Source: Protoeuglena noctilucae (lineage: Eukaryota). Taken from it: a stretch of 64,000 nucleotides of DNA. This document shows, piece by piece, positions 804-60,900 of this stretch. The stretch spans positions 1,550,001 through 1,614,000 of the forward strand of contig OY253669.1 of NCBI GenBank assembly GCA_958009085.1, given 5' to 3'. Made by a program: the position numbers and the translations under genes. A model generated the notes under the pieces. That model was not told where the DNA came from. It saw only the letters and a program-made list of their open reading frames with translations, and did not search any database. The first letter of the stretch is position 1. Each line of letters begins with the position of its first letter.

Positions 804-3800
804 TCAACCGTGGAAGAGCGCGGGGCGCGTTACGGCGTCCACGGCCGCGGCGACGGAGAGCTCGGGTCCCTTCTGAAGCATCTCGACCGTGGCCAAATGG
901 TGGGCCGTCTCTTGGAGTGACTTGGGGTCCAGGAACAGAGAGCCGCAGTGCGCCAGCAGCATCTGCGGAGGCCGGGCCAGCGCTAACAGGGTCGCTGCAG
1001 GTTCGCCGCAACAGATGCGTCGATGTGCAGCGTCTGACAAGGGACCCCGGCGTTAGGTGTGCACTCGAGCGAGGTGGGCCCGCGTGGGGTGTGGCGCGCC
1101 ACATCTCCCCTACGCTCGCCTGCATGTCCTTTTCGATGGGCGGGAACCGGTCTCCCCGGCACCGCTGGACAAACTCCTTGAGGAGCAGCTCGCAGTACTG
1201 CACCCGCTGCACGTGCGGGTTCTCAATGGACGAGCCCCCGCCCCACTCCTCGAGCCACGGCGCGCGGGGGCAGGCGACGCCCACGCCTTGCCGAAGGGAG
1301 AAGCCGATCTGCGTGGGCAAAGCAGGCGTGCGGTGAACGAGTGCACACCCCACTTACCCTGTGACAAGGTGCAGGGGCTGGCAGTGGCTGGAGGGTCGAT
1401 GGCATGTTAGTCTGACGCCTCGCCTTCACATCGTCCCTCTTCACGATGAGGGTGACCTTCCTGCCGGCACGCACGCGGACGATCCTGTCGAGGCTGTTCA
1501 GGCATTGGCCCCAGTGGCTCCCCGCTTGGCCCATCACATCCGGGGCGAGGTTGGGGCCATCCACCTCTGCACCTGCACGGGGGTTGGGGACCCATGAGGT
1601 GTCAGCCATTGCCTCCACTGCCCCTGCTGCACTCACTTCATCGCTGCTTCCTTGCACAGCCCTGTGTGACAGTTGGGTCATCCACAACTGGTGGGACTGC
1701 AGCCCTGCATAGCTCTCACCGCCTTGGGGCACCAGAGCCTTCGACTCGCACTCCTGGACCTCGCTCTCCTCCTCAACTGTGCCCTCGGCAGCCACCTCCT
1801 CGGCCCCATGGGACCCATCCCCCACTGCCACTGCCTCTGCTGGCGCGCCCGCCTTCCCTCCATCACTGGGGCTTTCTTCCGCGATGCTCTCAGCAGTGAC
1901 CTCCTCAACCGGCCCCGCCGGATCCGCCGCGTCGCCATCCTTGCAACCCTCGCCACCGCCCTCGCCCCAGTCCACCTCGTCGTCCAGTCTGACGCGCGTC
2001 ATTGCGTCAGGGTAGTACCCCAGGCCGAGGGGCCCCATCTGGAACACCATGCCGGGCCTGGCGCCCGCGAACGCCGGGCTGGGATCGAAAACCAGTGTCG
2101 CCGCGCCATCTGGACTGTCCTTGCGGGCAACGGTCCCGGCACCACCCGCTGCCACGCCCACCCCATCGCCCGAACCCACGCCCCTCACATCGCCACCCGC
2201 TGTCGCCCCGCCCACGGCCCCCGAGCCCTCCTCAGCCTCATCCACAGCACCAAGTTCCCCTCCGCGACACTCCTCGAGGTCTACCCCAGCGAGTGACAGG
2301 AAGCCCTCGGTGGCTGACGAGACGACCGTCTCCTCGTCCAGATACAAATCAAACCAGGTCACCACGGCGTTCAGGATGCCGTCCGCCACCACGTCGAGCC
2401 TGACGGCGGTCTGGCGACCCTTGCCGGCGCCGCCGTCCTCGAAAGAGATGTCGGCGACACGGCAGGGTCGCGTCAGGGGGCGCCAGTGCCCTGCGTGCGC
2501 CGCCAGGTCCATCGGGTAGCCCTGTGCGCCGAAGCGGTACTTGTCCATCTGCGAGAAGTCGAAACCCGCCACCCGACCCGTCAGCATCTGCGAGGGCGCA
2601 AGACAGGGGGCGTCTCTCACTGGTTGTGACATGGTGAGACGTGAAGGGCTCATGCGCAAGCAGACCGCCGCGGGGCGACGCGCCACCCCCGCGCCGGCTC
2701 GCCTCGATACCCATGCAGTACACCGCGGCCCTCTTGGGAATGACCGTCGCCCCCGGCTGCACGACCTTGCGCCTGGCCGCCTCGAGGATGGGCACGGCCG
2801 AGGCGCCCAGAAGGGAGTGGTCGAAGGAGTCGAGGATGACGAGGTTGACGCCGTGGACCCGCGTATCCTCTCCGCGCTCCAGCAGCCCCGCGTCCTTGTG
2901 GAGGGCCGTCACCTGCGGTGCGCGCGCAGAGTTGTGAGATGCGTGACAACACAGGTACAACTGCAGGTGCGGTCGCGGGCGCGAGCGAGGCTTCCGCACC
3001 TTGGTCAGCACTCCGTTCTGGGCCGCGACGCGCCTGGTCAGGTTGGCGCAGCTCTCGTTGATGTCCACAGCCACGACGGAGTCGGCCCCGTGTCTCGCCG
3101 CGAGGACCGACAGGGCCCCCGAGCCGCACCCGAGGTCCAGGACGTGCGCTTGGTGAGATGTCGACTCGACTGGACCCGTCTCGGGCTTGAGGCGCTTGAT
3201 GGCCCTCTCGATCGCCCGCTCGTACGCTTCCGTCAGGCCCGCGTCCCGCACCCTGCATGCGCCATGCCGAGCCAGGTCAGCTCCGGGGTTGAGCAAGATG
3301 TGGTGCTGTCATCTAGTGGTGCGTCGCTGAGAGGGCTGCTGGGTCGCATGAAACAAAGGGGGCCATCGGGCAGCAGAGATCGTTGGCACGGTCTGGGGAC
3401 AAGCAAGCTATGGCACGGCACCCCACCTCGCGAGCAGGGCCTCGGGGAACGTGTAGATGGCCTTGCATGCCCGGATGAAGTCCGCAGAGTCCAGGTCGAA
3501 CCGCATGCGCACCGTGTTGTGGGAGCAGCGGAGGGGCAGCACCTCGCCCAGGTGCACCCGCGCCTCGCCGGGCAGGTGCTGGAGCGCCGGGCCGAGCCAG
3601 CCGCGGTGCTCGGGGCCCGTGACAACGTGCACATCGCCGTAGAGGTGCATGTCCAGCCAGAAGAGGACGGCGTTGGCGTTGCGGTCAGCGGTGACGGTCA
3701 GGTCGACCTCTCGCGTCTCCGAACTTTGGGGCGGGTCCAGCAGAGAGAAGGTCCAGACCTGCACGGGGTCAGCCAGCGGCCTCCAGGCGTCCCGGCTGAG

Positions 3801-5848
3801 GGGTTTGTGGGACACGTGGGACGGTAGCCACCGGTGGGCGTCCACAGCGTCCATCCGTACGCCCGCCGGCGAAGGCGTCTTGACCTCCACCATCTGCGGG
3901 TTGCGGGCATCGAGATATTCCAGGTCATGAAACACTTCTAAAGGAACATTCCCGCGGGGGCGAGCTGGTCGACGTGTCTACTGCCGGAGCTCGCCTGGGC
4001 GTAGACGGTGACTGATGCGGGTATGCAGACGGGGTCGTCGTCGATAAGAAAGCTGCGGACGTGCCTGGCCGCCGGGACCGCGCCGGACATGAGCAGGCCG
4101 CTCTCCACCATGTCCATGATCAGCACGTTGCAGGGCCCGGGGACGTCGCCACGCAGGGCCAGGTCGGTGGGGCGCTTGTAGACGACCTTGAACCTGCACA
4201 GGTAACAGCTGACATTGAATTGCATCTTTCCTTGCCATGTGCGCACCTCCAGCCACGTCGTGACACGCCTGGACACGGCTGGGCGCTGTCGGGCCCTGAC
4301 GATGTTGGGCTCCTGACGCCCAGTAAGTCCCCCTAAAACAGCTCGGCGGAGTCAGCCCCAAAGCTGTCACCTCTCGTCCGCAATGCCGTTCGCCTTCAGG
4401 ACCTCCTTGCACGAGGTGGCCAGGTACAGCCACCGCTCGGTGCAGGTCACGTGGCGCGCCCCCGCCTCCAGAGCCATCAGGGCGTGCATGCCACCGCCGG
4501 CACCCACGTTGAGCACCCGGCAATCCATGTCGCGGGATTCGATCGCTTGGACGGCCGCGTGGATGGCCTGGCGGTAGCGCGCGTGGGCAGCCACGTCTTC
4601 CAGATAGCCGTCCAGGTACCGCCGAGGCATGTCCACATCGGCCATCACTGTCACGTACATGTAAGCGTCCTTGATGTCCAGCTCGCTCTCGGCCTGGAAG
4701 GGGGTGAGCAGGCGGGTAGGCAGGACGTCGCCGGTGCGGATCTGGTGCAGAGGGGCCGCGTGAGGGTGGTACGTGATGCGCTGCACCGGCGGGGGCGCCT
4801 CCAGCAACATCTGCTCCCGGTCCTCTCCGCTGCATAGAGCGGAACGAAGGTGGGCAAGTCAGGGCTGGGTGCCATGGCAACACCATGCGTCGACACAGGC
4901 TAGGTGGGCAGACGCGGCTTGCAGAGACGCATGGGACTTGGATCACCTAAGGACGTCGGCGAGGGTCTTTTGCGTCGATATCTCGAGCCCCCGGCGGCTG
5001 TCGAGGTGGAAGGGATCGATTTTGAGGGCCTCCGTGAAGGCCGCGCTCGCTTGCCGGTGCATGTCCATGGCGGCAAAGGCGTCGCCCTTCCGACACAGGG
5101 CCTTGACGAGGCTTGCAACCGCCTGCGGATGAGCGACAGAGTCTCTGTTCTTGCCGCTCCGTGGCAACTAGGCGGGCAGGGTACCCCAAGTTGCGATGGG
5201 AAGACCGAGGCAAAGCTCGAGCGCACCTGCTTGTCGACCAGGAGGTTGCCTTCGGCCAGCTGCGCAGCCCGGGTGGCGTGCTTTAGCGCCTCGTCGTGCA
5301 GGCCGAGTCGCATGCTCGCGGCCGCCATGTTGTTGTAGCTCACGTGCAAGGTCGGGTGCGTGAGGTTCATCGCGCCGACCTTGGCGCACAGCTTGCCGTA
5401 CGCCGCCAGGCAACCCACTGCGTGGGCGGGACGGGTTGCGCAATTCAAAATGTGCTTGCGATCTCCGAGCAAGCGAACAGCCTCACACCCCAGAACTGCT
5501 CACCGAGGTCGCCCTTTTTGTACAGCTCGACGGCCTCCGCGTTGAGGGTCGCCAGGGACTTTCTGCAAGCGCAGTGCATTGGGTCACTCCTCATCGTTGG
5601 ATGCGAGGCGCATCGCGCGTCGTCCTCGCTTCCCACGCCCGGCCTCGCCTCATGAAGTCAGGGTCGTCCTCCATCGCCCTGCGCCTCGCATCCTCCAGCG
5701 CGCTCTGCACATCCTCGATGTTATCGCCATCGGAAGGTGACATTGCGTCAGCATCCGTGTCCTTAACGGCTGCGCACTTCCCACTGCACGCACCCTCGCC
5801 GGGGACGCTGTCTGGGCTGCTGACGCCCTCCTGGGTCGTCGACACCAT
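804..5848 (-). CDS. TPR-containing protein arginine methyltransferase with two PRMT modules (PRMT7/PRMT9-like), about 12 exons
   Basis: N-terminal TPR-like helices (SYNNMAAASMRLGLHDEALKHA; KALCRKGDAFAAM..FTEALKIDP). Module 1 has VLNVGAGGGMHALMALEAGA and NAVLFWLDMHL. Module 2 has VLDLGCGSGALSVLAARHGA, NAVVTWFDLYL and SHWGQ. Exons join in frame through GT-AG and GC-AG introns. Confidence 0.85.
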
Positions 5849-6348
5849 CTCACACTTCTTCAATTGATGCAAGACTTGCAAGAGGATGCGGAGGCTCGAC
5901 GTAACAGCGCAGGAGCCTCGAATCCAGAGCTCCCGGTCCCGCAGAAGCGTGAAGGGCGAGGAACGAACTGGGAGCTGTAGGAGGCTCACGGCCACGTGAT
6001 TTGCGGTTCGAGGCACGTACTGTAACGCAGAAAACTAGCATATGGGCGAAGGATGCAGCGCGGTCACCCTCAGCGACGCAGAGGGGTCAGTGACTCTTTG
6101 TCTTCTCTGGCGCCTGCGTCAGTAACACGGGGCCTGCTCCGTCTCTTCGTCACCGGCAGCAAAGTCTACACGCTCTGAATAAATCGGCCACGGCAGCGCT
6201 TCCCGCGCCGGGGGCTGGGTGCGGAGTCCAAAGCCCGTGCCCGACCTTGGCTCCCAATCTCATCCAATCCCGACGTCCGCCATGACCTATTACTGCTAAC
6301 GTTGCCACGCTGGGAACGCAGCCCGCATCGGTTGGTCGAACAGCACGC

Positions 6349-7002
6349 CATGGCTGCGGCATCTTTCTTCCTCGCGTGGACCGCGCTCTTCGGAGGCGCG
6401 ATCCTGGCCTTCGGGGCGCCGGTCATGCCTGTATGGAAGACAGCCGCTGCTGCGGGGATCCTCACGGCGCTCACTTGGCTCCCTACGCTCCTGGCGTTCC
6501 CTGCCAAGGCGGGCCAGGTGGGCACGGCATTCCGGCCCCCTGGCGCGATCGCAGCTGTGCTGCGGCACGTGTGCATTGCCTGCACGGATCTGTCTGTCCA
6601 GCGTGACTCCTGGATGAGGTGCAGGCGCGCGCAGGTACAGGGACGGTGCGCTCGTTGTGGCATCCGCCCGTTGACTGGGAACGGGTGGAGGCCGCGATGT
6701 TATTCTGGCGATGCAAGACGCGAGCGGAGGTCGTGGCCGTCTGGCAGGTCCACTGTACCGTGGCTGGGCTGGTGGCAGGTGGGGCCAGGGTACTGCCCAG
6801 AGACAGCAGCACTGATGCTCGCCATGTGAAAGCATCCAACCGTGCTCAGCATGACATCGCGCGTTGCGCTCTCGCAGGCGCAGCGGCCATGGCCCTGGAC
6901 TGGCAGCAGTGGTGGCAGGCATGGCCGCTTTCGGTGGTCGCCGGCAGCATGGCAGGATTCGCTGCAGGGTCCGTGGCTGGCCTCCTCGCCCCTGCAGCGT
7001 GA
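6349..7002 (+). CDS. PIGF: GPI ethanolamine-phosphate transferase accessory subunit PIG-F/GPI11 (spliced; true start may be upstream)
   Basis: Hydrophobic protein with ILAFGAP and the C-terminal PIG-F signature AAAMALDWQQWWQAWPLS..G...G. Confidence 0.8.
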
Positions 7003-7015
7003 CTGCCGTTTCTTG

Positions 7016-7020
7016 TTACA
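7016..7020 (-). promoter_or_regulatory. Candidate chlorophyte-type UGUAA polyadenylation signal for PAN3
   Basis: TTACA on the + strand (TGTAA on -), about 155 nt downstream of the PAN3 stop. A similar site at 17743 follows KEA1, but I did not find one after most other genes I checked. Confidence 0.3.
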
Positions 7021-7174
7021 GCTATCGGCGATGCTCAGGCCTTGCTAAAGGCTCCCAGCGCGCCTTCCTTTGCCGCCCAGCATCATTCCCACACCGATCC
7101 GTAGCTCACTCCCCTCGAAGAGCACTATGTTCAAAGACACCTGCCGAATTCCTGCTTTCGCCTACCCCGTCGTC

Positions 7175-9973
7175 TTAGGAATAGCCGTGGGAGCTCGCCG
7201 TGTCCATCCGCCGTCGCCCCGCCGCCGCGGCTTGCATCAGGCTGTGGTAGCACCCCTCGACGGCCCTCCTCAGCTGCGCGTAGGACGCCACCACGAGCGT
7301 GCGCTCGTCCCGCGGGATCGTCGTGACGCGCTCCGGCACCCCGGCGTCCAGCTTGCCCAGCGCCTCGATGACGTGGCCCCACTCCATCGCAGGCGCACCC
7401 TGGTCCGACACCTGCCCGAACAAGAAGTCCCTCAGCAGGCCCGCCAGGTACAAGTCCCCGGCCTCGACGCGCATTCCGAGGTCCGAGGGCGGCCGGGAGG
7501 TCACGAAACCCAGCTTGACCAGCAGCCGCGCCATGCGCCCGTTCTCGAGCTCCCGCTGCGGGCGGCGCAGGCGGGGCGAGTCACGCCAGAGGATCGCGAG
7601 CAGCGCACACGCATCTGTGGCGTCTTTTTGCTGCGCGCGCGTCTCGCCTCGAGGTCCGCCAGCACCCGGTCAAGGCCGACGCCCACGGCGCCAAACTCCA
7701 CGCACATCCGCCCGGCCATGGCCGTCACGAGCTGCTCGGCCGAGTTGATCCCGCGCTCCCCGGGGCCCTCCATCAGGTTCACGGCGAGCATGACGAGCTC
7801 CCGAGTGAAGTGCTGGGCCGCGAACTCCACCGACGGGGTCTGCACCGTCCCCGCGCACATGAGGGCGAGGAGCAGGTGTCCGAGGGCCGCGAGGTCTTGC
7901 GAGAAGAGATGCGCCTGCTGCGGGCCCGGCGGCGGGGGCGCCTCGCCCCGTAGCACGTCCAGGACCCCCAGGGACCCGATGCGCACGCGGCCCATGACGG
8001 TCAGCAGGACCTTTGACGGGTCCAGGCACCCTGCGAGGAGGCGCAGGCGCAGGCGGTTACTCGCGGGGAGGGGTAATGCGCGGCAGGGGTCACGGGGAGA
8101 ACAGCGGGCGCATCGCACCGGGACGGACGGGCAGGCCGTGGCTGTGGGCGGCGTGCAGGGCGGCGGCGAGCTGGGTGGCGTAGGACCATATCTGCTGCTC
8201 GCTGGGCGTGTGGCGAACGATGGCGCCCGTGGCGGGGTCGGAGACGGGCCGCATGTGCGCGGCCTCGAGGGAGGTGGCCCCACCGTGGAGGTCGTGGACA
8301 AAGACGAGGGACGGAACCGCGTCACGGTCGGAGGTGATGAGGACGTGGCGGGGGACCACGAGGCCCGGGTGCTGCCCTAGGGGACGCCACCGCTCCGTAA
8401 TCTGGGCCCCGACCTGCGCCATCTCCTGCGACGGCACCACCTGCCGCCCGTTGACCCGGCGCAAAGCGTAGGGCAGGCCGTCCACGCTGGACACGGCCTT
8501 GAGGACGACGGAGTAGATGCCCAGGGACGTGGAGGGACCCTCCTCCGCGGCGCTCAGGTCCTCCAGCGGCCAGAAAGAGTGGAAGCCCTCGACCACCTCC
8601 CCCGCGATGCCCGCCTGAGTCAGCTCGTCCGGCAGCATCTGCGGGGCGGGCGAGCGGCCAGGAGATTTCGGTCTAAAAGCGAAAGGACCCTTGAAGCGAG
8701 GCAGGTCGGCAAACACTAGGCCTGCGCATTTGGCAGTACGACGTGGGGCTGTTACGCGGCATGACCCACGTCACGCACCTGAGCGTGAGCCAAGACGCGT
8801 CTCTGCTGCAGCTCCTGACGGAGGTTCTCATCCACGAACTGGGACGCAAACTGCGCGCGCCCCGCGCCGGCCAGGAAGGGCGAGGGCGAGATCATGTGCC
8901 CACCGCCCCGCCCGCGCCCGCGCCCCCGAGCCCCCAACGCCTCTCCTCTTCCCGGGCCCCTGCCCCCACGGCCCCCGGGACCCGCCGGTGGGTTGCCCGG
9001 AGGGACGGAGGGGGGCGGGACTGCCGCCACTGGCTGCCCCGTGCTAGACCTGCGCAAACGGGCATTATGGGCGGGACGCTGTTCCACTGTGGCACTGCGC
9101 ACCCGGAAACCCTTGCAACTGCAGCACCAGAATCAGCATTGGCTAAGAAGCACCAAAGCACCCGTGTGTCAAGGACACGAGGCATGCGGAGTCACGGGGT
9201 GTGTAAGCACACCCAGCCACTGCGTAGATACTCTCATCTTGGCTCGGTGCTTACCTGGGGATGAAGGCCCCGGTTCCATGGGGGCGCATCGTGGGGATGG
9301 GTGCCGAGGCCGGGCCACTGTCTTCCATCCATGGGGCTGTCGGCTGGGATGCCTGCAAGCAAGCGGCGAGCTGCGCTCATGCCGGCGCGGGCGACTCGCG
9401 AGGTGCGTTCGATCCCATATCGGAAATGTCAGCGTCAGCCATCGATCCTCGCCTGGCCCACCGGGGCGGTCTGCGCTCCCCCGGGGACGAACACCGCTGC
9501 CGACGCCGCCTGTGCGAGGTTGGGGGCCTTGTGCCCGGCCGTGGGCCGGAACTCAACCGCCGCGGCGCTGAAGGTGACGCTTTCCTTGGCACCGGCCGTG
9601 CTCTGCAGCGAAGTGTCGCAACGCAGGGGACGATTGGATTCATTTGCAGAAAGATCGTTCCAGCCTGGCCCTCGCGATGAAGACGATACGGTCTTCCGCT
9701 GATCACCTTGCTGGGCGATGAGGGCGTAAACGTCTTGGCCGCGAGGCTGAGGGAGGTCTTCAGCTTCGCCTCCAAACTCTGCTCCCCTCCCTTGGCCTGG
9801 GCGGCGACGGGCACGAAAGGCTGCGGGATGCGACGACTTACAATCTCAACAACCCGATTATAACGACGGATGGCGCATGGGACCCCAGGGCGCCCACGGG
9901 GGACATCCGCCCAGCAGTGAATCCTCACCGCCGCGTTGACGTTCGGGCCCTGGCTCCCATCTCCTCGCCTCAT
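7175..9973 (-). CDS. PAN3: PAN2-PAN3 deadenylase subunit PAN3 (PAM2 motifs, pseudokinase, C-terminal knob domain)
   Basis: FHSFWPLE, VLKAVSSVDGLPYALRRV, IWSYATQLAAALHAAHSHGL, CLDPSKVLL, QDLAALG, RELENGRMARLLVKLGFV, GDLYLAGLLRDFLFGQV, HVIEALGKLDAG. Confidence 0.93.
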
Positions 9974-10442
9974 TACGACGCAACTGTAATGCGGTCGGCA
10001 ACGGCGTCTAAGGGCCGGAGAGGGCCACTGGCCCCCCGGGCCAACAGCGCTCGCTCTTGTCGCTGGTCAACGGCAGCGGGCAAGCGGATTCGCCAAGATC
10101 CGGGCCTCGTTGGGTGCAGCTGACGTGTGCGATCTCGCGATCTTCAAGCGGGGCGTGCCGGTGCGAGAACCTCGATGCAGCGATGGAACTGGCGTCGCAC
10201 TGGAGCGAGCATTGACAACAGCCGAGGCCGGCGAGGATGCACCTGCTCCAACCCAGCATGTCGCTGTGTCCTCTGTCGACCGCCAACCTGGATCGACGCG
10301 TTCCCGCTCACCCTTAGTTTTGCTACTGGACGCAGGGCGTGCTGACCACGTTGCCTGAGCAGAGACCCGCTCTTGGCCTGAGAGAGAGGCGGGCCGTGGA
10401 AGCAGTGGCCTCGCGGCGGGGGGCTGGGAGGGCGTGAGCGCG

Positions 10443-11219
10443 ATGCACAGCCTCTTTCAGCGCGTCAGCTCGCTGCTGTGAGGATGCTCGCGCGCCGCGC
10501 TCGCGATGCAGCCGATCCGCTGCACGGTGTCGAGAGCCTTCGGTGACCGTCCTCCTCGAGCCCCCCTGCCCTCAGGACGGTGGCCCTTTCGACGCTGATG
10601 GTGATGGCCGCAGTCACGGACATTGTCAGCAGCCTCCACATGGGCCAGCCCCGCGTGCAAGCACTCGTCATGAACACCAAGTTGCGACCAACGCCCTACG
10701 GGACCGAGGACGGGCTCGTGTACAGCTACCTGGACGCTGACTTTTCCAAGGTCGGGTCGTGCGCGTTCCCGTGGCACCCCTAGGGAAGCGCCTGCGCCGC
10801 GAGCGAGTCGTGGAGTCCCCTTGGCTTCGCAGGTGTTCACATGGAACACGAAGCAGGTGTTTTTGTACGTCTTCGTCGAGTACGAGGACGAGGCCCGGGG
10901 CCGGCAGGAGCACGTCGTGTGGAATCACATCATCAAGCGGGAGAACAAGGATCATCACGCCATCACATCAGGTGCGTGGTGGCTTGCTGTCGCGAGCGCG
11001 GCCAACACGGTGGCGCCCCCACGCGATGCTGGGGAACAAGCGGTAGGGGTCATCGTCATCGCAGGCATCGGGTCCTTCTACCCTGTGACTGACCGCCTCG
11101 GGAGCCTGGGGGGCAAGCCTTTCCAGATCGCTGTTGGCTGGGACATCATGCCCTACGTGGGACGGCTCCAGTCCGGTCGGAAGTCCTTCCCGGGCAGCGT
11201 CTTCCCCAGCAGCGTGTGA
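10443..11219 (+). CDS. SPCS3: Signal peptidase complex subunit 3 (SPC22/23)
   Basis: Exon 1 MHSLFQRVSSLL, then LDADFSK|VFTWNTKQVFLYVFVEY..EHVVWNHII and VGWDIMPYVG, all SPC22 signatures. Confidence 0.92.
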
Positions 11220-11497
11220 CGCGTGCGACAGTGAAACGCTGCGGTCTGCCTTCCTCCATGAGATGAGATGAGATGGCCGGCTTGCAACATGGCCCTCGCT
11301 TGGCCCGCCGTGCGGCTCTCCTCAGATTTGTGCTGCACCATGGCTGGGGCCCTGACAGTTATGTCGCCAGGACTAGTAGTCTTTCCTCCCCTCCAACTCC
11401 TTCCGCATGCTGTTCGCACGTCAGATGCGTGCTTGAAATCTCATTTAGCGAGGGGGAGGTGCGACTGGGGCCAGGCCCCTCAATTGCTCAAGCAGAA

Positions 11498-14040
11498 ATG
11501 CGTCTCTGGGGCCACATTGCGCGCCGCACATCAGGGTTATCTATCCGTGAAGTGGCTGCGTGTCGGTCGACGAGGGCATCGCGCCTCTCGCTCGGCTCCA
11601 GGGGTGCATCCTTCGCCCCTTCCTCGAGGCCCGAGGGTGGCATGTATGGACTTTTCGGCGCCAGCAGGTGACAGCTTTGTTGCGGATGGAGTCAGGGTTG
11701 TCACGCGGGCAAGCATCAGGGCCACCGCGGCTTTCGCCGGCCCCGCGTTCAGCCTGTGGCTGTCCTTGGCGCAGGTCGGGAACTCGCGGCGCCAATTCGG
11801 GCCGAACGCTTTTAGGAAGCATGGTTGCAGCGTTCGCGGCCGTGGCCTTCGGACCCGATAGCCGGGGCGACGAGCCCGGCGCCCCGCAAGTGGCGATCGT
11901 GACGACCGTCGGTTGCAAGTACTGCATCAAGACGAAGGCTGCGCTGCGTGACCAGGGCATTCCTTACCTGGAGATAGACCTGGACAAGTACCCGCGCGTC
12001 CTGAGCGCAGTCAAGGAGGCCACAGGGCTGCTAACTGTGCCCCAGGTAAGCGGCCCTGCCGCATCGCGCTCCCGGGTCGACCTCCCGGGCTCTGTGCGGA
12101 ACGCTTGACGCGTAAGCAATCTGTGCGTCTTCCGCAAGGTGTTTGTCAGCGGGCAGCTGGTGGGAGGGGCGGACGACACGCTCCAGGAGATCGAGAGCGG
12201 CGCGTTCAAGCAGCGCCTGGCCGGCGCCCGGCCGGATCCGCTGCCACCGGCAGTGCGACGAGTGTTGGAGGAGATGCAGGCCATGCCCACGGTGAGCCGC
12301 CTTCGAGAGAACGCCGCGGGCGGGGAGATGTTCTCATTCGCCATGTATTTGCCCGCCCCGCCGCCCCGCAGCCCACGGGCGAGGCGCCCCCGGGCCCGCT
12401 GTCGGATCCTGCAAAGACGCGGACGATGCTGGCGGCCAAGCAGGCCATCCGCGAAGGCTCGCTCGTCAGGGACGTTGCCCAGGGAGGGGGCGGGCTCTGG
12501 GGGCGTGGAGTGGTCCACACCAAATGCTTCCGGGCCTCAGAGGCCGCCAAACGACTCATCACGGCGCTTCCAGAGGTGAGCCCCGAGCTGCATGCGCCAC
12601 TTCCCCCGTGCCCCCGCGCTGGGCGACCATGGGACGATCCCCGCTGCCTGTGCTTGCAGGCGGTGCGGAGTGCTGAGGACGGGCTGGCGGTAATTGGGGA
12701 CATGTTGAAGGGGCGCATGCTCCAGGTGGTCGACAGGGGCAGCGGGCCGCGGGGAGGCGACGTGGGCGGCTACCTCTTGCGCTTTGCCGAGGACGCCCCT
12801 CCGCCCCAGCTGGGCGAGCCGCTCAATGCGCCCTTCACCTTCTCCACCGCCGCGCGCCCGGCCGTGCAAGTCTCCCAGGACCTCCGTCGGCAGGTCCTCA
12901 AGCTGTACGGGAAGTTCCTTTCGGAGGATGGCCGCAAGGGTGAGGCATGTGCACGGGACCTCGCCTGCCGCGTCGCACATCGCACACTCAGCCTGACGCT
13001 GGGTGACGTTGGGCGCAGCTCCCCTCGAGAAGCGAACGCGTATGCGCTAAATGCGTGTTCCATCGTGTCCCGCAGTCGACTACGCCGGGATGGGTCGTTC
13101 CCAGGAGTTTGCCGATTTTGTGGAGGCGTCTGCGGAGTTGCAGGCGGTGGACCCGTCGGGCCTGCCCGAGAACGAGCGAAAGGCCTTCTTCATCAACCTC
13201 TACAACATCATGATCGTGCACGCCAACGTGGTGATCGGGGCACCAAAGACGGCGTCGGACCGAATGCGCTTCTTCCCTGGAGTCAAGTACAACGTGGGTG
13301 GTCTGGTGTACTCTGCGGACGACATCGAACACGGCATCCTCCGATGCAACAGGCCCACGCCCGCCTCTCTGGTGAGGTCGCTCGCTGGATGGCACACAGG
13401 CCGCGCCAGCCTCACCCCCCGACCCCACGCTTGCCTACCGCCCCCGCACACGCACTCGCTCACCCCTGCGCGCAGTGGGCCCTGTTGGGCATGCCCCAAC
13501 GTGCGCGCCCGCTGCTGCCGCCAGGCGACCGCCGCTTGCACTGCATGCTGCACGCGCCCGTTGACCCTCGTATCCACTTCGCCCTGGTGTGCGGCGCCAA
13601 GAGCTGCCCGCCCATCCGGGTCTTCGACGGCGGCAACGTGGACCGCGCCCTCGCCGCGGCTGCCGAGGGGTTCTTGGAGAACGAAACGCAAGTGGACGAG
13701 CGCGCCGGGGTCGTCACCACGAGCATGATCCTCAAGGCGAGAGCCGCGTCGCACATGACTCACCTCACATTTCTCAGGGCATCCGTATGGTTTCGACTGG
13801 TCGTGAGTGCCGTCCGCTCACCCCATGCGCCATTGCTCGCGGCCCACCCCACCCCTGTCTCTATTGCCTGCGCAGTGGTATGGGTTCGACTTTGGGCAGA
13901 CGAAGGAGGAGGTGCTGCGGGCCATGGCCAAGCTCATGCGCGAGGGATCGGAGAAGCGCGCGGCGCTGGAGAGGATGCTGGCGAACAAGACCAACGTGAC
14001 CCTCAAGCACGCACCGTACGACTGGGGCGTCAACTCATGA
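11498..14040 (+). CDS. Glutaredoxin + DEP-like region + DUF547 domain protein, with a possible organellar presequence
   Basis: Grx motifs GCKYC and TVPQ|VFVSGQLVGGADD. DUF547 motifs ERKAFFINLYN, YSADDIEHGILRCN, DPRIHFALVCGAKSCPPI, SMILK|WYGFDFG and YDWGVN. The start is approximate. Confidence 0.85.
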
Positions 14041-14169
14041 GCCGTCGCGGTGTCCCTGTGCTGTCTGTCCCCGTGCTGTCTAGAGTCGCTGTGTTGAACA
14101 GCTTCAAGTGCCGTTGAACACCACGAGACGCCCGCCAAGCCGCGCGGGCATCAGACAGGGCAGGGCAAA

Positions 14170-15623
14170 TCAACTGGCGGTGGGGAAAAGAGCCTCGACA
14201 AAGGCCTCAGGGTCAAAGAGCTGCAGATCCTCAATGCCCTCCCCCACGCCCACGAACTTCACGGGCACGCCCAGCTGGTCCACCACAGACACCACCGCGC
14301 CGCCCCTGGCCGTGCCGTCCAGCTTGGTCAGAACCAGGCCGGTCAGGCCGACCGCCTCGTGGAACTCCTTCGCCTGGTTGATCATGTTGAGCCCCGTGGT
14401 GCCGTCCAGCACGAGCAGCACCTCCTCCGGCGCCCCGTCCTGCGCCCGCCCGATGGCGCGCTTGCACCCCGTCAGCTCGCTCATGAGCCCCTCGTTCGTG
14501 TGCAGGCGCCCAGACGTGTCGCACACCACCACGTCCACCTTGTCCGCCTGCGCCTTCTTGACCGCGTCAAACATCACCCCGCTCGGCTTCGTCCCCGGCT
14601 TGTACTCGGCCATCACCGCCCCTGCCCGATCGGCCCATGTCTTGAGCTGCTCCGCCGCGGCAGCACGGAACGTGTCGCCTGGCACCACCATCACCGACGC
14701 CCCCGAAGCCACGAGACGACTCGCCAGCTTTCCGATCGTCGTGGTCTTGCCGCCCCTGCGGCAGCCAGGGCAACAGGGCAACATAGGACGGACCGGCAGC
14801 CCCATCCCGCCTACCCAGTACCCGCATTAAGAGGCACCCGGCGCTCACCCGTTGACCCCCACGACGAAGACGATTCCGGGGCTCTGCGTCAGCTGCAGGT
14901 CCGAGGAGCTCTTGGCGCTCCGCAGCACGTCCACAATCGACGCCTTCAGTGCCGTCTTAATCGCCTCCCCCGTCTTTAGCTTCCCCGACAGAACCTCTTC
15001 CCGAATGCCGTCCACGATCTGCAGATGCAAACTGCATTGCGTCTCGCCCCGCATCTCGGGGCGGCCAACGTCGCGCGCTTGTGGGAGAGGTCGGCTCGCC
15101 TTGAGTGCCGTGGTCGGCCCAAAGTCCGCCGTGATGAGCGCATCCTCGAGCTCCTCCAGGGTGTCGTCCGCGTCCTCCAGAGTCCAATACGCGAGGAGCT
15201 CGTCCACTACCGACAGTCTCTCGCGCGTCTTCTCGGTTCCACCCACTGCAGTGAGGCACGCTTGGTCGATCGCATCACCCGTCTCGTCCCGGCTTGGGCG
15301 CTATTCTTCCGGAACGCGCTGGGTCACCTAGCCTGCTGAAGTCCCTCTGAGCCTTCTCCTTGAGCGTTCGCGTGATCTTCTGGAAGATATTTGCAGACCC
15401 CGCCTGCGTCTGGGCGCGGCAGACCACCCGGCCGGAACTAGCCGCCCTCCCCCGCCCCTGTGGAAGCATCAACACGGATATGCTCATAAACGTGACAGTG
15501 CGAGCCCGATTGCAGCGTACAGGTGGAACACAGCGTCCCGGCGCGGCTGGGATCGCCTACACAGCAATCAAAGGCAGAGGAGCGGCCAGGGGCAACCAAT
15601 GCGATTTGATTGCGTGAACTCAT
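14170..15623 (-). CDS. ftsY: Chloroplast SRP receptor cpFtsY
   Basis: ELEDALITADFGP, VGVNG|GGKTTTIGKLA, GDTFRAAA, DTSGRLHTN, LDGTTGLN, TKLDGTARGG and GVGEGIEDLQLFD. The N-terminus is transit-peptide-like (VVCRA). Exon 1 is approximate. Confidence 0.95.
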
Positions 15624-16094
15624 GCATAGTGAGTCAATGATGCAATGGGTGCCGGGGGAGTATCGCTTGGAGACACGCCGAGGTCGCGACGGGGCGCTGA
15701 TATCCGGTTAGCTGCGGAACAGGCCTGCCGGTGCGATGCTGGGGAGACGCACCTGCAGTTGGGCGCGAAGCGCATGCGACATGGTCGAACACGACGCCGA
15801 CATGGTTTCGGCCCTTGTGTGCGCTCGCGCGCAGAGGCCCGTCGCTGCAAAGCAAGACCTTGTTTTCTAGAGGAACGAAACAGCGATGACCTGTGCCTCG
15901 CTGTCGCAACGGTCCAGATGCTCGTTGTCGACGCGACGCGCTGCATTTGAACGGTCGGCGGCGAGCGTAAGGGCGTGCCAGACATAGCTGTGTCACCGCC
16001 CCCACAATTTGCTGAATGCGCGACATACGAAGGCAAAGAGGCTTTGCGCAGCGTCATGAGGAGACTGTGAATATCGGGAGCTCGGGGGCCGGCC

Positions 16095-17638: not shown

Positions 17639-18015
17639 CGCACGGGATCTGGCGTTTGAAACGGAGCCGGGGCTCACGGTCGCCAGAGAGCGAGGGCTGC
17701 GCGGCGGCGCTGACTCGGCCCGCGTGCGCAGGAGCCGGGCGCTTACAGACGATGCCGCAAGGATGGAGCTTTGTAGGGACTAGCAAGGCATTCGGGGCGA
17801 AGCGTGGCCCCGTGCTGTGAACGGACCTATCACGACGGCTGGCCTCTGAGCTGGTAAAGAAGAACCCCTGAAAAGAGGCGGGAGCGGGCCTTTGTAGCTT
17901 GCGCTGCATGGACGGGGGCAGGCCTGCAGTCCGCCTTTGAAAAAGCGAACGAGGGCGGCGTGCGTCCTCTTGATGGGTGTGACGGCCCATCCGCAGCTGC
18001 GTGGATGACCGTTCC

Positions 18016-41251: not shown

Positions 41252-43993
<2,742 letters not shown>

Positions 43994-50581: not shown

Positions 50582-50733
50582 ACAAACTGCACTGCAACGT
50601 AGCCCAATGCGGTGTTCAACTGGCGCCGAGGTCTAGCTTCGCACGTCGCCCGTCATAGCCCCTCCCGCTTGCCCCATTCTGCAATGCTTGATGGGCGTCT
50701 CGGAGGCGACCAGGAGTGCCTGGGCTGCACCCA

Positions 50734-51571
50734 TCAGCCCGTGATGCCCGGCAGAGCACCCTTCTGCAGAGACGGCACCCTTGTACGATCACAACCATCA
50801 CATAGATGATGGACTCCTCCCCAAGGCCCCTTGCGGCGCTGGTGACCACGAAGCCCTTCTCACCTCGAAGAACGTCTTCCCAAAGGCCACCAAGGCCCCC
50901 AGCAGAGAGAAATAGCTCAGCCCCTCCGCTCCGCCCAGCAGCCCAGCCGGGCCCGGCGGGAGCCCTGCAGGTGCGACAACCGCCGCAGCCTCATCACACC
51001 TAGCCCCAGACCTGTCGGGATGCAGCACGTCTCCTACGAGCCTGCGTCTGCAGCGCCCTCGCGCTCTACAGGCTTGCCTGTCCCGGTGGAGACCTTGGTC
51101 TTGATCGACCATCCCACGATCCCCACCACAGCGAGGTACCCAATGCCCTCCGCGGCCCCGAGGAGCCCGGCGGGGCCCGGGGGAAGGCCTGGGGGCATCG
51201 AGGAGGCGCGAGTCGCGGGTTACAGGTGCGGGTGATGGCGCAAAGTGTTCGTTTAGGTGGTAGCAAAGCAAGTGCGTACCCGAGCCGGTCGTCGCGAGCA
51301 CGTACTCCGACCAGAGGACGATCCCATTCAGCAGGCAGCCCCCTGCTCCGATCGCCCCTTCGACCGCGGAGCTGCTCCCAGCATCGGAGGAGGGCGTCGA
51401 GGCCTTGCCCTTGGATGAGGGCGTCGAAGCCTTGCCCGTCTTCTTGGAGGCGAGGCAGCGCACACTCGCGCGCGTGGGCCGAGCGAGGGTCCTGACCCGC
51501 GTATCCGCGAGCCTGCGGGCGGAATGTCGTTCGCGGCACCATCGATCGAGGGTTGGCACGGCCAAACTCAT
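50734..51571 (-). CDS. Small predicted plastid membrane protein with a duplicated GLPPGPAGLLGxAEG.(S/G)Y motif; function unknown
   Basis: Transit-peptide-like N-terminus. The spliced product is WSEYVLATTGS|GLPPGPAGLLGAAEGIGYLAVVGIVGWSIKTKVSTGT|GLPPGPAGLLGGAEGLSYF..., with last exon KGALPGITG*. Confidence 0.75.
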
Positions 51572-51963
51572 GGTCACAAAACTTCGCCCCCTGTTTTACC
51601 TCACAGAGGCCGCGGCAGTACGCGCTGTCGTCTGCATGGATCACTCAAGCGCGCTCCTGTGAGAACACCGTTGAGTCATCGTCGCGAGGGGCGGAGGACT
51701 GCACACATTCGGGCTGCGCTTGGGGCAAGCCCTACTGGCACAGCCTGAAGCGTAGGCCCGCTGGCTCAACAGATGGTGGAGGGCAGCCAGATTGCCATTG
51801 CACGCGTGCTTACCTCTGGCTCCTCTCTTAGGACAGCGATCAGGGTCCAGGGCCTTAGCGTGTTTTGGCCCGCTGCTGATCAACACGTGGGTTTTCAACA
51901 TCTGCCCATCGTGCTTGCCTTTCAATGAAGCTCTGAGCTGCGGACATCTAGATGCAGCCGGAC

Positions 51964-54900: not shown

Positions 54901-57900
54901 TCCGTCTTCCAGAACCCCAAAGTCAGGTCAGGCGAATGAAGAAGGTTGCGCTTGCTTGCATATGCTGTTGTACAACAGCTGGGGGCTCTGTGCTGGGCAG
55001 CAGGGCGGAGGAGGGGCAAAGTGCGGCAACCCTGGCTTGGTCTGTCCTTGCAGGCGTGCGATGCGGTCAATGGACCCTCGGGACGTGGCGATCATGGCGG
55101 TGGTGGACCTGGTGAACGCGGGGCGGTGCGTCCTGCTGCAGGGCACGTCGGACGTGCCCGACGCACGGATCCTGGCGGCGGGCATGGCGCAGCTGCACCT
55201 GGCGGACCGCAGCGAGGTGCCCGTGGCCGAGGCGCTGCAGGAGGAGGTGAGCGAGATGACCTCTGGCCGTGGCGCTGGCTGTGCCATGGCGTTATGTTGG
55301 GCGACGCTGCTGACCTGCAGCGCAGGGCATCCATCGAGCCATCTACCCCCACAGAGTCTCATATAGCTATCATGTAATATTGCTGTACTCACGGACTGCT
55401 CTTCACCCGCGCCCGCGCCCGCAGCTGGTGGGGAGCTTCTGCCAGTCGCTGTCGGGGGCGCAGCGGTCGGACCAGGCCCCGCAGGGCGCGGGGTGGGCGG
55501 AGCGCTTGCGCGGCGCGGCCAAGATCGCGGCGCTGCTGATGATATCGCAGCTGCAGGATAAGTCGTCGCTGGTGGCTCCCGGGGAGGAGAACACCACCGC
55601 CCCGCCCCCAGAGCACAGCGCAGTGGCCATCGTTCGGGGTGCCGCAGAGACCATGGCCAGGAACACCCTCATGCGCATTGTCAACGCCTACCCCGCGGTG
55701 CTCTTCTCCCAGAGCTGCCTGGGGTCCCTCCTGCAAATGAGCGTCGACACCAAGCGACCCCTAACAGCCAAGGGCGTCAAGGCGAGTGACGCACGAGTGC
55801 TCGGCTCCATCGGGCTCGGCTGATGCGTCTGCATGTCGCGGCCAAACTGCTGTGTGTGTACAAAAGCACGCGTGGTTTTCGTTGGGGCTGCTGAGGGCGA
55901 TGCCAGTGCCACCGCAGCCACCTCGTCCACACCAGCCCATCGCCAATCCGTAGTCACCCGTGCCATTAACGCAGAAGCTCGTCCAGCACCTGCCCAAGCT
56001 GGTCCGGGCGGGGCAGTCCCCCACCGCCCAGCGGCTCCTGGAGGGCTGGGTCGAGAGGTCCGCGCACTTCGCCCCGGCGGCCATGGAGGCCTCGGTTCAC
56101 CAGATGCTCCTCGGATACGCAGCGGGGGTCGGCGTAGCGGAGAACGCAGAGCTCATGCGCCACGCGTCGCGGGTGCGTGCGTTTGGGCGTGGTTGCAGAC
56201 GGCGCAAGTGTGATGTGATAGGACCGAGGCGGCCCGTCAGCTCGTGGGCTGCATCAAACCTATGTAGACTCTGTCTCTGCGCTTTTTCTGGACCGCATCG
56301 CCGCAACGTTCTGCGATTACTGATGGCTGACTGGCGCCCACCTCTCATGCCAGCGTACGACGGACCGCGTCTTCATTACCTTGGACCCCCACAGGTGCTG
56401 GAGCTGTGCACGGCGGCCAAGCGCACCGCGGCGTCCCTTAGCGGCCTCTTCTCCGGCGCGTCGTCAGGCACGGCCTCCTCCTTCACGCTCCTCAACACCA
56501 AGGCCATGTACCTGGGCCGGGCACGCGGGCGGCTGCACGAGCTCAGCAAGCGCCTGGGACGCGACGCCGCGCTGGAGCGACTGACGCGAGAGGCGTGCGC
56601 CTCCGCGGGACGCGGGCAGGCGAGCGGGGTGCGTGTTGGGCCTGGGAATGGGCTGGCGACGCGCTGACGGGGACCGTGCTTGGGCCGTCCTTTGGTGGCG
56701 CATGGTCCTTGCCGGCGCCGGTCTCACATGTTTGGCCTTGTATCATGGGAACCTGCTAGCGGGAACCAGTCTCAGTCAGGGCCCATAGGAACCGCACCCC
56801 ATGAGTCTGGCTGGGCACATACGCCTGCGCCACATCCGCCCAGCCCCGACGCCACCCCGCGGACCCCACCGCTCCGCAGGGCGACTTGGACGCCCTCCGC
56901 GACGACGTGATGCTCCTCGCGGCGCTGCTGACCCTGAGCGCGTCAGAAGACGCCACGTCCTCTTCCCTCACCGATGCCACCCTGGGCCTCGCGATTCAAG
57001 CCGCTGTGGCCCGCCCCATGGAGTGCCTGCGCACGGCGGTCGTGACCAGCGCCGTGGTGGCGTGGTCCTGGATCTGCTCGGCCATCCCCAAGGTCGCGGA
57101 GACGCGGGTGGTGCAGGAGGTCGCTGCGGCGCTGCTGTGAGTGCCTGGTCACGCGAGCGGCTGCGTCGACGATACTTAGAGATACTGGGCTTGACGTGCG
57201 ATGACAACTGTTGTACTGAGTACCGTTTTGCCTCACTAGAAGCCTTAGTAAGTTTTGGCCATAATGCGCGTGACTTGCTGCCAGCCTTCTCTTGACACTC
57301 GCAGGGCGTCGGCAGTGGCGCGCAAGGGCATGTTCGCATGGGAGACGCGCGGCAATGCGGACGAGGAGGAGGAGGGCGGTGGGACGGTGCTGGAGGCGGT
57401 GCGGTGCCAGCAGGCGTGCGTCAGGCGAGTGGGAGCGGCGGGGTGTCAGCAGACATGCACATCAGCCCCCGCCCAATGCACACTGCACACAGCTGCCGCT
57501 ATCCCCCAGCCCCCCTGCCCCTTTCTCGCAGTTTCTTGATCGAGCACATGGGCATCCATTACCAGGAGGGCACCCGAGGGGCAGTGGCGGTGCGTGCCTC
57601 CGTCCTCACCATGTGCCAGGACCTGCTGCCCCATCTGGCCAACGACCCAAGGGACCACTCGCCCCGCCCCGCCGTCACCGTCCACGCGCGCCTCCAGATC
57701 ATGTTTCTCCTGGCAGAGTCCGCGAGGAGGGCCGCGGGAGACCGCACCCCGGCTGCAGCACGTGAGGCGGCTCACTCAGTGCTAGAGACCGGCACATGCG
57801 CACGGTTAGCAGTCTAGGGCCCAAGCGACAGCCCCATGACGAGGAGTCGCAGAACGCCAGTCTGCATGATGCAGCAGCTTCCACAGACTGGGTGCTCTGA

Positions 57901-60900
57901 CCCCGCTAGCTCTCATGACACCCCACTCTGATAGCCCGGCCCCGCCCCCGCCCCCGCAGTGCGTGCGACGGTGTCGGCGCTTCGCTCGGTGTGCCGCGCG
58001 ACGGCCCTCATCCTCGCCGAGGACCCCGCGCCCTGGTGCAACCTCTGGACCCCCACGGAGTCCCGCCTCCACATCGCTGCTGTGCTGCAGCTCGCGTCGT
58101 CCGTCACGGCCCTCCGCGACGCCCTGCGCGCCGCCCCCGCCGCGGCCCGCGCCGCCGCGAAGGTCGACGAGGAGGCTGCGTGGGCCTCGGAGGAAGCGGA
58201 GGTGGTCGAGTTTGCGCTCGAGCTGGAGGCGGACCGGCTCAGGTGCGCCACGCTTTGCTTTGGGAGCAGTGCATGGGTGGCACAGGTAGCAACAGGTTAC
58301 AGGAGGGGTGAGGTGGGCGTATACAGAGCTAGGAACGCAGCAACTCAGCGTCCGCGACCCTCCGCCCCGCACAGGCTGTGGGTGGAGCCGACGGGCCGCG
58401 GCCTGGGCCGTGTTTCTGACGACGACTCGATTCCTGAGGTCAAGGACGCCCACCCGACCAGCATGAGCGACCTGGGGCTCCTCTTCCGCCTCAAGACCCT
58501 CCCGCGACTGGGGGCCGTCGCCTGGCAGCTGTCGCCCAAGCTGGCCGTCCGCCTGCTCATCGCCCACGAGGGCCGGCGCGAGTTCACGGGGAGGTGAGCG
58601 GGGCGGGTGCCCTCCAATCTTGCTTGGGAGCCTTCTTCGGTTTCTGTTCCACAGCCCTCACCATGCCCTGTGCCCTTGACTAACTGAAGCCCAGCACCCC
58701 TCACCCACCCACACCAACGCCCCACAGCCCTCACCGACCTGGCACCACTCCGCCCCTCCCCCGCAGCATCCTGGCGGGCATCTCCGCGGATCTCCGCAGC
58801 GGCTGCGAGTTCCTGGCGGCGGTGCCGATGGCTGCCCCCGTGGTGCTGAGACGGGAGGCGGAGCTGGGCGTGAGCAGTGCCGAGGTGGCGGAGCTGTTCG
58901 GGCGCTTACCCCCGGGGTCGCTGGAGGACGCGATGCAGATGCTCGCTGAGGCCGGGGCGCGGCTTTACGTCCGCATGTACGCCGTGCGGTGCCTCGAGGT
59001 CCGGACGAGGGGCGGGGAGTGTTTCGTGCGTGTTTGGGACGCCGCTTAGGGCCGAGGCCCGCCCTCAGCAACCTCTGCCCCTTCTGTGTTGTTCTCGCAG
59101 GCCCAGGACTCCGAGGCCATCATGTTCTACATGCCCCAGATGGTGCAGACGCTGCGGCACGAGGGCAACCCCGAAACGCCAGACGACGAGAAGCCGGTAA
59201 CGTCGTTCCTGGTCGAGAGGTCCGCCGCGTCGGATGCCTTCGCGCACCGAATCTTCTGGCTCCTCCGCAGCGAGGGGACGCCGCCAGGTGGGATGCTGAG
59301 CCAGGGCATGCAGGTGCACAGGGCGTTGTCACACTCCACCCACCCCGCACTGCACTGCGCTGCACTTGCACGCTCCCAGTTGCACCGCGAAACTTCCAAC
59401 TTCGCTTATCCGCAGAGGAGGCTTTCAACCCTGAGATCAAGAGGTCCGGCTGGAAACCTCCCCAGGACTCTGGGCTGTGGGCGATTGCCGACGCAGTTAG
59501 GGGGCGGATCGTGGGGGCCATGTCACCCCGGGTGAGGGCAAGCACGGGCAGCATGAACATTGACGGAAGGTGCAAGCTGCCTTTGCAGAGCGGCCGTCAT
59601 ACAGATGATTGCGTTGTATGATTGCTTCGTAGCGGTGACGGTGCGGTTGGTGGGAAGTGTTTTGGTGGGAAGTGTTTGGTACGGCATCCCCGCAGGCGCG
59701 GCAGTTCTTGGATCGGGAGGATGGCTTCTTCGGTGAGATCAATGGGATGAGCGGGAAGATGAAGCCCATTCCGCCAACGATGCGCAAGGCGAGGATGCGC
59801 CATAGGTGCACCCAGCTTTCACCCATGCCTGTAGCCACACCCACACTGCTACCCACACCCACACTGCTACCCACACCCACACTGCTACCCACACTCACAG
59901 GCCAAGCTGTCCGAGATGATTGAGGAGGCAAACCGCACCTACGACCGTGACCTGTCGGCCTCGGCCAAGCTGGCGCGGGGGGGCACGGCCGGGCGTTCCG
60001 AGACGCTCCTCTACATGCCCCTGGACCCCCACAAGAAGGTCCTTCGCGCCGTGCCCGGGAAGGGCAACGTGATGCCCAGCGCCGCCAAGTTTCCCGTGAT
60101 GGTCTTTTTCGAGACGATTGCCACGCGGGACGGGCGCGACGGGCGGTGCCGGCCCGTCAAGCCCGTGGTGCCCAAGCAGCTCGCCTACATCTTCAAGGTC
60201 GGGGACGACGTGCGGCAGGTGAGGCCGTGTGGTGGGATGATGCGCGGCAGGGGAGGGATGCGCTGGCTACCCCTGCCGATTTGGCTACCCCTGCCACCTC
60301 GTCTACCCCCGTCACCTTGGCTACCCCCGTCACCTCCGCCGCCCACATCCCAGCACCCACCCCTGCCCCCAGGACGTGCTGGCTCTCCAGGTCATCGACC
60401 TGGTCCAGAAGGCCTTCCAGCGCGCGGGCCTCGAGGCGAACCTTTTCCCGTACGGCGCCATCCCCACGGCCTACGAGCAGGGCATCATCGAGGTGGTGCC
60501 CGACTGCCAAAGCCGCACCGCCCTGGGAGAGGTGGCAGACGGCGGTTTGTACGACATCTTCATGCGCGAGTACGGCGCGCCGGGGTCGCCCGCGTTCGAG
60601 TCCGCGCGGCAGAACTTCCTGAGGTCGTGCGCGGGGTACGCGGTGGCGACCTACCTCCTGCAGGCTAAGGACCGCCACAACGGCAACCTGCTCATCCGCA
60701 AGGACGGCAGCCTCGTGCACATCGACTTCGGGTTCATCCTGGAGATCTCGCCGGGCGGCAACATGAAGTTCGAGAGCGCGGGGTTCAAGCTCTCCCACGA
60801 CATGACGCAGCTCATCGACCCAGGTGCGCCGTGCTGGGCTAGTGTGCGCAGAGGTAGCGACCCAGGACGGGGCTCCCGGCCCCTTCCAGCTACGCAAGCA

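Follow-up and report, generated by a model that had tools for sequence, protein, structure and literature searches.

GC-AG introns, whose donor (5' splice site) carries GC in place of GT, make up 1.2% of introns on average in plants (PMC6310983) and much more in some algae with GC-rich genomes. Iwata & Gotoh (2011, PMC3033335) gave shares of 39.6% for Aureococcus anophagefferens, 22.2% for Micromonas pusilla and 7.7% for Chlorella sp., and linked them to G+C content; the predicted shares of about 14-17% in the pelagophytes Aureococcus and Pelagomonas were also attributed to high G+C (bioRxiv 10.1101/2024.10.30.620910). In Emiliania huxleyi about 60% of donors are GC, and predictors based on GT mis-annotate its genes (Feldmesser et al. 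2014, PMC4028052). Here we describe a 64-kb stretch of DNA from Protoeuglena noctilucae (assembly GCA_958009085.1, contig OY253669.1, positions 1,550,001 to 1,614,000 of the forward strand; hereafter the window), in which a prediction made from the sequence alone (the original prediction) had placed about 20 GC donors in an AG/GCRAG context, where R is a purine and the solidus marks the exon-intron junction. Coordinates are those of the window, and donors are named by the first base of the intron.

Abundant GC-AG introns are not new for GC-rich algae; the window adds an intron-rich green alga to a short list. It resembles the algae of PMC3033335, two of whose three species are green, in joining a nuclear genome of roughly 65-70% G+C to many per cent of GC-AG introns, our values (67.1% G+C and about 15% GC-AG) being those of the window and the published ones genome-wide. 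It differs from them in that its organism lies on a separate long branch and is much more intron-rich (about 6-7 introns per gene in our gene model). The strict context rule reported below, a 50:50 mix of GC and GT at perfect donors and no credible GC elsewhere, was measured in the window and does not appear in the available text of that paper. With E. huxleyi the organism shares a marine habitat, a high G+C content (65% there) and mis-annotation by GT-only models, and GC donors were verified there by RNA and by reverse-transcription PCR; however, E. huxleyi is a haptophyte with a GC majority, whereas the window belongs to a green alga in which GC is a 15% minority found at consensus donors. 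The pelagophytes have a similar GC-AG fraction, but they belong to the stramenopiles and their genes contain few introns (0.19-0.92 each). The GC-AG introns known from animals and plants, at about 1%, agree with those of the window in their dinucleotides, in the AG acceptor and in the compensating consensus (positions -2, -1 and +3 to +5); in the window such introns are more than ten times as frequent. A literature search for GC-AG introns with green-algal names returned nothing on this particular organism, which we do not take as a claim that it is undescribed.

GC donors of the window and their support

The observation behind the original prediction, frequent GC donors, is confirmed. Exonic AG followed by GCGAG (17 sites) or GCAAG (3) stands on the expected strand at 20/20 coordinates, and none of the sites was refuted. 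Direct evidence covers the sites themselves, splicing in RNA at five and protein continuity, that is, strong homology, at seven more (15099, 25541, 42509, 57425, 59789, 39961 and 39690); the others are supported by weaker homology (40833 and 56620) or by a gene model (six sites). The heptamer AGGCRAG is by itself weak evidence for donor use because it is frequent by chance: the two strands together hold 46 copies, where a second-order Markov model predicts 34.1 ± 5.4, and 24 of the 46 are not used as donors. This abundance favours the view that exons had been misjoined and that transcripts use a nearby GT or retain the sequence. AGGTRAG occurs 34 times against 11.1 ± 3.3 expected. The 20 introns, and two absent from the original prediction, are as follows.

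963-1119, minus strand: GC-AG intron of a PRMT9-like gene, cag/GCGAGC...CGCAG; RNA joint from 962 to 1120 in run X2, and gene model
1309-1423, minus strand: GC-AG intron, aag/GCGAGG; RNA joint in runs X2 and X3
2588-2702, minus strand: predicted GC-AG intron, gag/GCGAGC; gene model
3894-3994, minus strand: predicted GC-AG intron, cag/GCGAGC; gene model; retention gives an in-frame stop
5563-5648, minus strand: predicted GC-AG intron, gag/GCGAGG; gene model; retention gives an in-frame stop
7556-7647, minus strand: GC-AG intron of PAN3 (ADLE/RELENG); RNA joint in X2, X3 and X4; next exon opens at position 32 of the Pan3_PK profile
9353-9452, minus strand: predicted GC-AG intron, cag/GCGAGG, new here; gene model, in the poorly conserved N-terminal part of PAN3
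13737-13875, plus strand: GC-AG intron of a glutaredoxin-DUF547 gene (ILK/WYG); RNA joint in X2, X3 and X4, cut at shift +2
15019-15099, minus strand: GC-AG intron of chloroplast FtsY (TALK/IVD); flanking exons on 4ak9_A
17407-17511, plus strand: GC-AG intron of an RsmI-like methyltransferase gene; deduced from an X2 contig
21491-21588, minus strand: predicted GC-AG intron, aag/GCAAGC, in the coiled-coil N-terminus of a KEA-type K+/H+ antiporter; gene model
25411-25541, minus strand: GC-AG intron of acyl-CoA oxidase (DGK/DYGPHPF); gain in profile score
34853-34998, plus strand: predicted GC-AG intron, cag/GCGAGG, new here; gene model; retention gives a stop
39566-39690, minus strand: GC-AG intron of a BACK/discoidin-like gene; 11.8 bits better than with the GT alternative, no gap against P0237
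39805-39961, minus strand: GC-AG intron, aag/GCAAGC, of the same gene; +13.0 bits, no gap against P0237; 4 stops if retained
40691-40833, minus strand: probable GC-AG intron of the same gene; +3.1 bits, gapless against P0237 (KRWQ/ELQ against RRWQDLS)
42378-42509, minus strand: GC-AG intron of a papain-granulin protease; exact Peptidase_C1 continuity
50965-51077, minus strand: predicted GC-AG intron, cag/GCAAGC, in a gene scoring 18; gene model; the least certain
55782-55974, plus strand: predicted GC-AG intron of PI4K-alpha in a poorly conserved region; unspliced, a stop at 55823 splits the gene
56620-56879, plus strand: ambiguous in PI4K-alpha, either GC-AG or GT-AG from 56629
57425-57531, plus strand: GC-AG intron of PI4K-alpha (QQACV/SFLIEH); +10.9 bits, gapless against L003
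59789-59900, plus strand: GC-AG intron of PI4K-alpha (PTMRK/AKLSEM); +24.2 bits, L003 continuous as PTMRKAKLAEM

Of the sampled words of window 1000-9000, four runs labelled with one organism contain 100%, and four marine metatranscriptome runs, all from a single study, contain 23-37%. The four metatranscriptome runs were placed on window 1-20000 and gave 34 joints, 15 of them listed with positions. Among these 15 of 34, once the cut ambiguity was resolved, four were GC-AG and 11 GT-AG, and the four GC-AG joints fall exactly at predicted donors (introns 963-1119, 1309-1423 and 7556-7647 on the minus strand and 13737-13875 on the plus strand). Contig pieces directly add the GT-AG intron 18079-18283(-). 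In an X2 contig (record 12), 101 letters separate the piece ending at 17199 from the one starting at 17510, a length that fits exon 17306-17406 given that each cut is ambiguous by 2 nt; by this arithmetic, rather than by listed joints, we deduced a GT-AG intron at 17202-17305(+) and the GC-AG intron at 17407-17511(+). GC-AG thus accounts for 5/18 RNA-backed introns, and 5/9 of the GC donors predicted in window 1-20000 are backed by RNA. The donors 2702, 3994, 5648 and 15099 are not among the 15 of 34 joints listed, and RNA depth was low over 2-6 kb. Run X1, although labelled as RNA, did not yield a single spliced joint, and it includes two contigs that are unspliced over acceptors: 7196-7591 across the RNA-backed acceptor at 7556, and 3287-3695 across a predicted acceptor near 3427. 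Such contigs would also be expected if the sequence were retained; taken together, they indicate that X1 holds genomic DNA or pre-mRNA of this organism.

Junctions were also examined through the proteins, with a Pfam scan covering 134 single exons. At 42509 the Peptidase_C1 match, profile positions 1-106, stops 3 residues before the end of its exon and resumes at position 111 with residue 2 of the next exon, so that exactly the four residues between profile positions 106 and 111 span the junction. At 15099 the flanking exons match residues 22-68 and 69-125 of the cpFtsY chain 4ak9_A with none missing or added, and at 25541 a hidden Markov model (HMM) of 57 homologues gave 882.7 bits for the GC model against 822.6 for the GT-only one, DGK/DYGPHPF being gapless. 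These results uphold the TALK/IVD and DGK/DYGPHPF joins of the original prediction, just as the RNA joints reproduce its ADLE/RELENG and ILK/WYG joins. For PI4K-alpha, the GC model forms one domain of 1940 residues against an HMM of 19 full-length homologues, whereas the GT-only model splits the gene; swapping a single junction for its best GT alternative lowered the score by 10.9 bits for 57425 and by 24.2 bits for 59789. The metagenomic locus L003 reads straight across both of these junctions, is uninformative at 55782 and slightly prefers the shorter GC form at 56620. The swap at 56620 has no effect, since 9 nt downstream there is an in-frame GTGCGT, a plausible GT donor that would suit misjoined exons, although its flank score (ggg/GTGCGT) is 0.0 against 5.4 for the GC site. 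The scores at the BACK/discoidin-like junctions were obtained with an HMM of 13 homologues.

To place these donors among all introns of the window, we wrote a gene finder that combines a three-periodic Markov coding model with splice matrices by dynamic programming on each strand. It predicted 22 genes with 145 introns (median length 107 nt), recovered 17/18 RNA-backed introns and used 20/20 of the GC donors. GT stands at 119 of the predicted donors and GC at 26, 22 of the latter in the AG/GCRAG context (the 20 original donors, 9452(-) and 34853(+)), suggesting a credible GC-donor share of about 15% (22 of ~145) for this window. The original prediction had proposed an unusually high frequency, and against a norm of about 1% this is what the model returned. 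The choice of donors was stable: all 20 were selected at a GC prior of 0.5, 0.3, 0.1 or 0.02, and 19/20 with matrices built from 13 GT introns alone. Decoys whose prior was set equal to that of GC were used rarely (GG 3-5 times and GA 3 times, against 25-26 times for GC). With GC donors forbidden, the model lost 178 score units, recovered 12/18 RNA-backed introns and split one gene in two. G+C at third codon positions (GC3) was 0.87 in exons against 0.65 at in-frame third positions within introns, and retention of the predicted GC introns would cause a stop or frameshift in 23/26.

Four weak GC donors were not counted: GCGCGA at 25225, GCCACT at 33763, GCGGGG at 37647 and GCAACA at 49180. The first (intron 24993-25225) is an artefact: it bridges what looks like a frameshift of one base within acyl-CoA oxidase. 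The other three are as many as the decoy rate of 3-5 would give. The apparent +1 frameshift lies at 25206-25221(-), at a GGCAAAG run where homologues read ...DG(K)YVPPP...; it may stem from strain variation, from a genuine lesion or from misassembly of the short A run. The gene finder was unreliable on contigs of other organisms, where it predicted introns in L003 despite an uninterrupted tblastn match; from these contigs we therefore kept the one intron of L001 and L002 that homology supports.

Donor context and its interpretation

The GC donors follow a context rule. In the perfect context AG/GYRAG (Y, pyrimidine) the predicted donors comprise 22 GT and 22 GC, whereas all other contexts hold 97 GT and 4 doubtful GC (Fisher p = 2.5e-10). 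The RNA-backed subset shows the same, with 5 GC and 4 GT in the perfect context and 0 GC and 9 GT elsewhere (p = 0.03). All of the credible GC donors (22/22) thus carry the enhanced AG/GCRAG consensus. The GT donors deviate from it freely, with A at -2 in 62%, A at +4 in 58%, C at +4 in 30% (the frequent GTGCG type) and G at +5 in 83%. Scored on their flanks with a matrix trained on GT donors, the GC donors reach 4.0-6.3, against 1.6-6.3 for the RNA-backed GT donors, and in-frame GT alternatives within 45 nt of the GC donors score at most 2.0; within 45 nt of the 21588 donor there is no in-frame GT at all. We found no difference between GC and GT introns in length (p = 0.14) or acceptor strength (p = 0.49). 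Nearly all predicted introns (143/145) end in CAG, and all 22 credible GC introns end in AG. Within introns, C/(C+T) is 0.63.

Among the 145 predicted introns we detected no RTATCC donor and one TCCTTRAY branch-like match, the two U12-type signals searched for, and the GC-AG introns of the window fit the U2-type spliceosomal class. The splice signals of the window are stereotyped, with donors dominated by GTGAG and GTGCG, and a CTRAY branch-like motif occurs in the last 60 nt of 21/145 introns.

The canonical 5' end of U1 small nuclear RNA (snRNA) is AUACUUACCUG, and in the register of its pairing with the donor a C at +2 loses one base pair. The remaining consensus is reportedly stronger at GC donors, as Burset et al. 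in 2000 and Thanaraj and Clark in 2001 are said to have found. The window most probably holds ordinary U2-type GC-AG introns at a high share, produced by GC-biased change of T to C at +2 that is tolerated at donors otherwise fully paired. Strong GC-biased mutation or gene conversion would drive T to C at +2; the C would be accepted only where A-2, G-1, G+1, R+3, A+4 and G+5 all pair. Selection would then purge the change at weaker donors, while at perfect ones it may drift, reaching about half. The coding GC3 of 0.87 and the intronic C/(C+T) of 0.63 show the same GC bias as that proposed for +2. The 50:50 ratio at perfect donors, with essentially no GC elsewhere, supports a U1-pairing threshold model under GC-biased pressure.

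The original prediction had left a choice between relaxed or shifted donor recognition and a GC-biased conversion from GT to GC that strong donors tolerate. The counts (22:22 in the perfect context against 4:97 elsewhere) speak for tolerated conversion, and shifted recognition finds no credible GC donor in a weak context to support it. With C at +2 recognised as well as T, GC donors would be expected in weaker contexts too, where GT donors do occur.

Several points weigh against tolerated GC-biased change as the explanation. Micromonas RCC299 has 2.7% GC-AG introns at 64% G+C, so that G+C alone is insufficient as a cause (PMC3033335). At perfect donors C accounts for 0.50 of the +2 bases, a smaller share than the C/(C+T) of introns, and strict neutrality at these donors is therefore not demonstrated, while the relatives of PI4K-alpha have no orthologous introns by which the T-to-C direction could be polarised. 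An Rfam scan of the 64-kb window gave no match, hence no snRNA, U1 included. The RNA consists of assembled contigs, as opposed to raw reads, from marine metatranscriptomes of one study and two or three samples, and the intron total of 145 is a prediction of which 18 introns are RNA-backed, made with splice matrices trained on these same 18. Of the 20 sites, 12 have firm support; the other eight are 40833, 56620, where the HMM ties (896.2 for GC against 896.3 for the GT alternative), and the gene-model sites 2702, 3994, 5648, 21588, 51077 and 55782. At one of these, contigs of three runs leave the window at 3877, 16 nt inside the exon adjoining the predicted 3894-3994 intron.

A different reading of the same share is that the splicing machinery of the lineage is altered, through a U1 variant opposite +2, a base modification, or contacts of the U1 small nuclear ribonucleoprotein (snRNP), U6 or Prp8, and so accepts GC almost as readily as GT. 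A GC share more than ten times the plant average would suit it. For Aureococcus and M. pusilla, whose difference from Micromonas RCC299 is not explained by G+C alone, PMC3033335 suggests that base modification or proteins of the U1 snRNP are involved. The same source, however, describes canonical U1 5' ends in both of these species, whose GC-AG introns are exceptionally abundant. In the window, moreover, GC is limited to the perfect context while GT tolerates deviations such as the 30% C at +4, and full compensation would be needless if C at +2 were accepted as such. We consider altered machinery unlikely.

Intron turnover and the remaining alternatives

GC donors could also date from the birth of their introns, in a large-scale gain from elements or duplicated sites that supplied AG/GC. 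Some support for this comes from relatives. The best named protein matches of the window are to chlorophyte green algae, at no more than about 73% identity in the most conserved kinase exon, and in a tree the PI4K-alpha of the window forms a long branch in a core-chlorophyte polytomy, beside an unnamed sequence. In the closest metagenomic relatives, which have 64-72% G+C and match the kinase exon at 79-85% identity, PI4K-alpha is all but free of introns. One uninterrupted tblastn match shows that L003:71-4747 encodes residues 435-1940 without introns, a region where the gene model of the window has 19. Two others, L001 (487-607) and L002, have a single PI4K-alpha intron there; it is GC-AG (AAG/GCGAGC...CAG) and non-orthologous to those of the window, whose gene is intron-free at that position. 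GC-AG introns of the same consensus thus exist near this lineage, and intron content differs sharply. None of the other genes of the window was found on the 80 loci from metagenomic relatives.

Intron loss in the relatives, however, explains this pattern equally well. An all-against-all comparison of the 145 predicted introns (blastn-short, E <= 1e-3) gave 0 hits, indicating that there is no introner-like family within the window, and the likeness of GC and GT introns in length and acceptor strength also counts against such a gain. That GC donors were supplied at birth by such elements or sites is, in our judgement, quite improbable, and we doubt that this is a chlorophyte lineage with recent large-scale intron gain in which many GC donors were made with the intron and not by decay of GT. 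If it were, recent gain would offer a natural system for watching how non-canonical donors are acquired by new introns or are present in them from the start. Misjoining of exons, finally, is very improbable, being refuted at the 12 sites where RNA contigs splice exactly at GC or protein continuity fixes the junction, and disfavoured by the stops and frameshifts that retention would bring.

Annotation and further observations

The abundance of GC donors in the window opens no new question; its weight lies chiefly in annotation, and it also illustrates the context rule cleanly. Of the gene models, 12/22 contain one or more credible GC donors, and a GT-only annotation would break or distort roughly half of the genes of the window. 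The warning in the original prediction that standard gene predictors would mis-annotate such genes proved justified, as our GT-only run split PI4K-alpha and inserted 21 residues in acyl-CoA oxidase.

The highest GC-AG share among the genes of the window (5/12 introns) is found at 804-5848(-), a 13-exon gene with TPR repeats and two PRMT7/PRMT9-like methyltransferase modules. Searches of PDB with four PRMT9-like exons around 2702 and 3994 gave matches that were weak or on different chains, and a search for longer proteins with the 289-residue exon 1721-2587 gave no match.

RNA contigs diverge from the window at 3877, 7449, 7940, 14713, 15441 and 17174 and continue for up to 255 letters. The consensus strings of the loose ends at 3877, 7940, 14713, 15441 and 17174 have no match anywhere in the 64-kb window; paralogues, other strains or chimeric contigs are possible causes.

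Two contigs join introns of opposite strands. One, over window 1-1308, links the plus-strand GT-AG intron 456-548 with the minus-strand introns 963-1119 and 1309-1423, and another (16788-19611) links the plus-strand introns at about 17.2-17.5 kb with 18079-18283 on the minus strand. Single contigs across convergent genes imply that neighbouring 3' ends overlap or abut. Poly(A) tails were seen on RNA contigs at 241, the end of a plus-strand transcript, and at 11451, 232 nt past the stop (11219) of the gene for the SPC22 signal-peptidase subunit.

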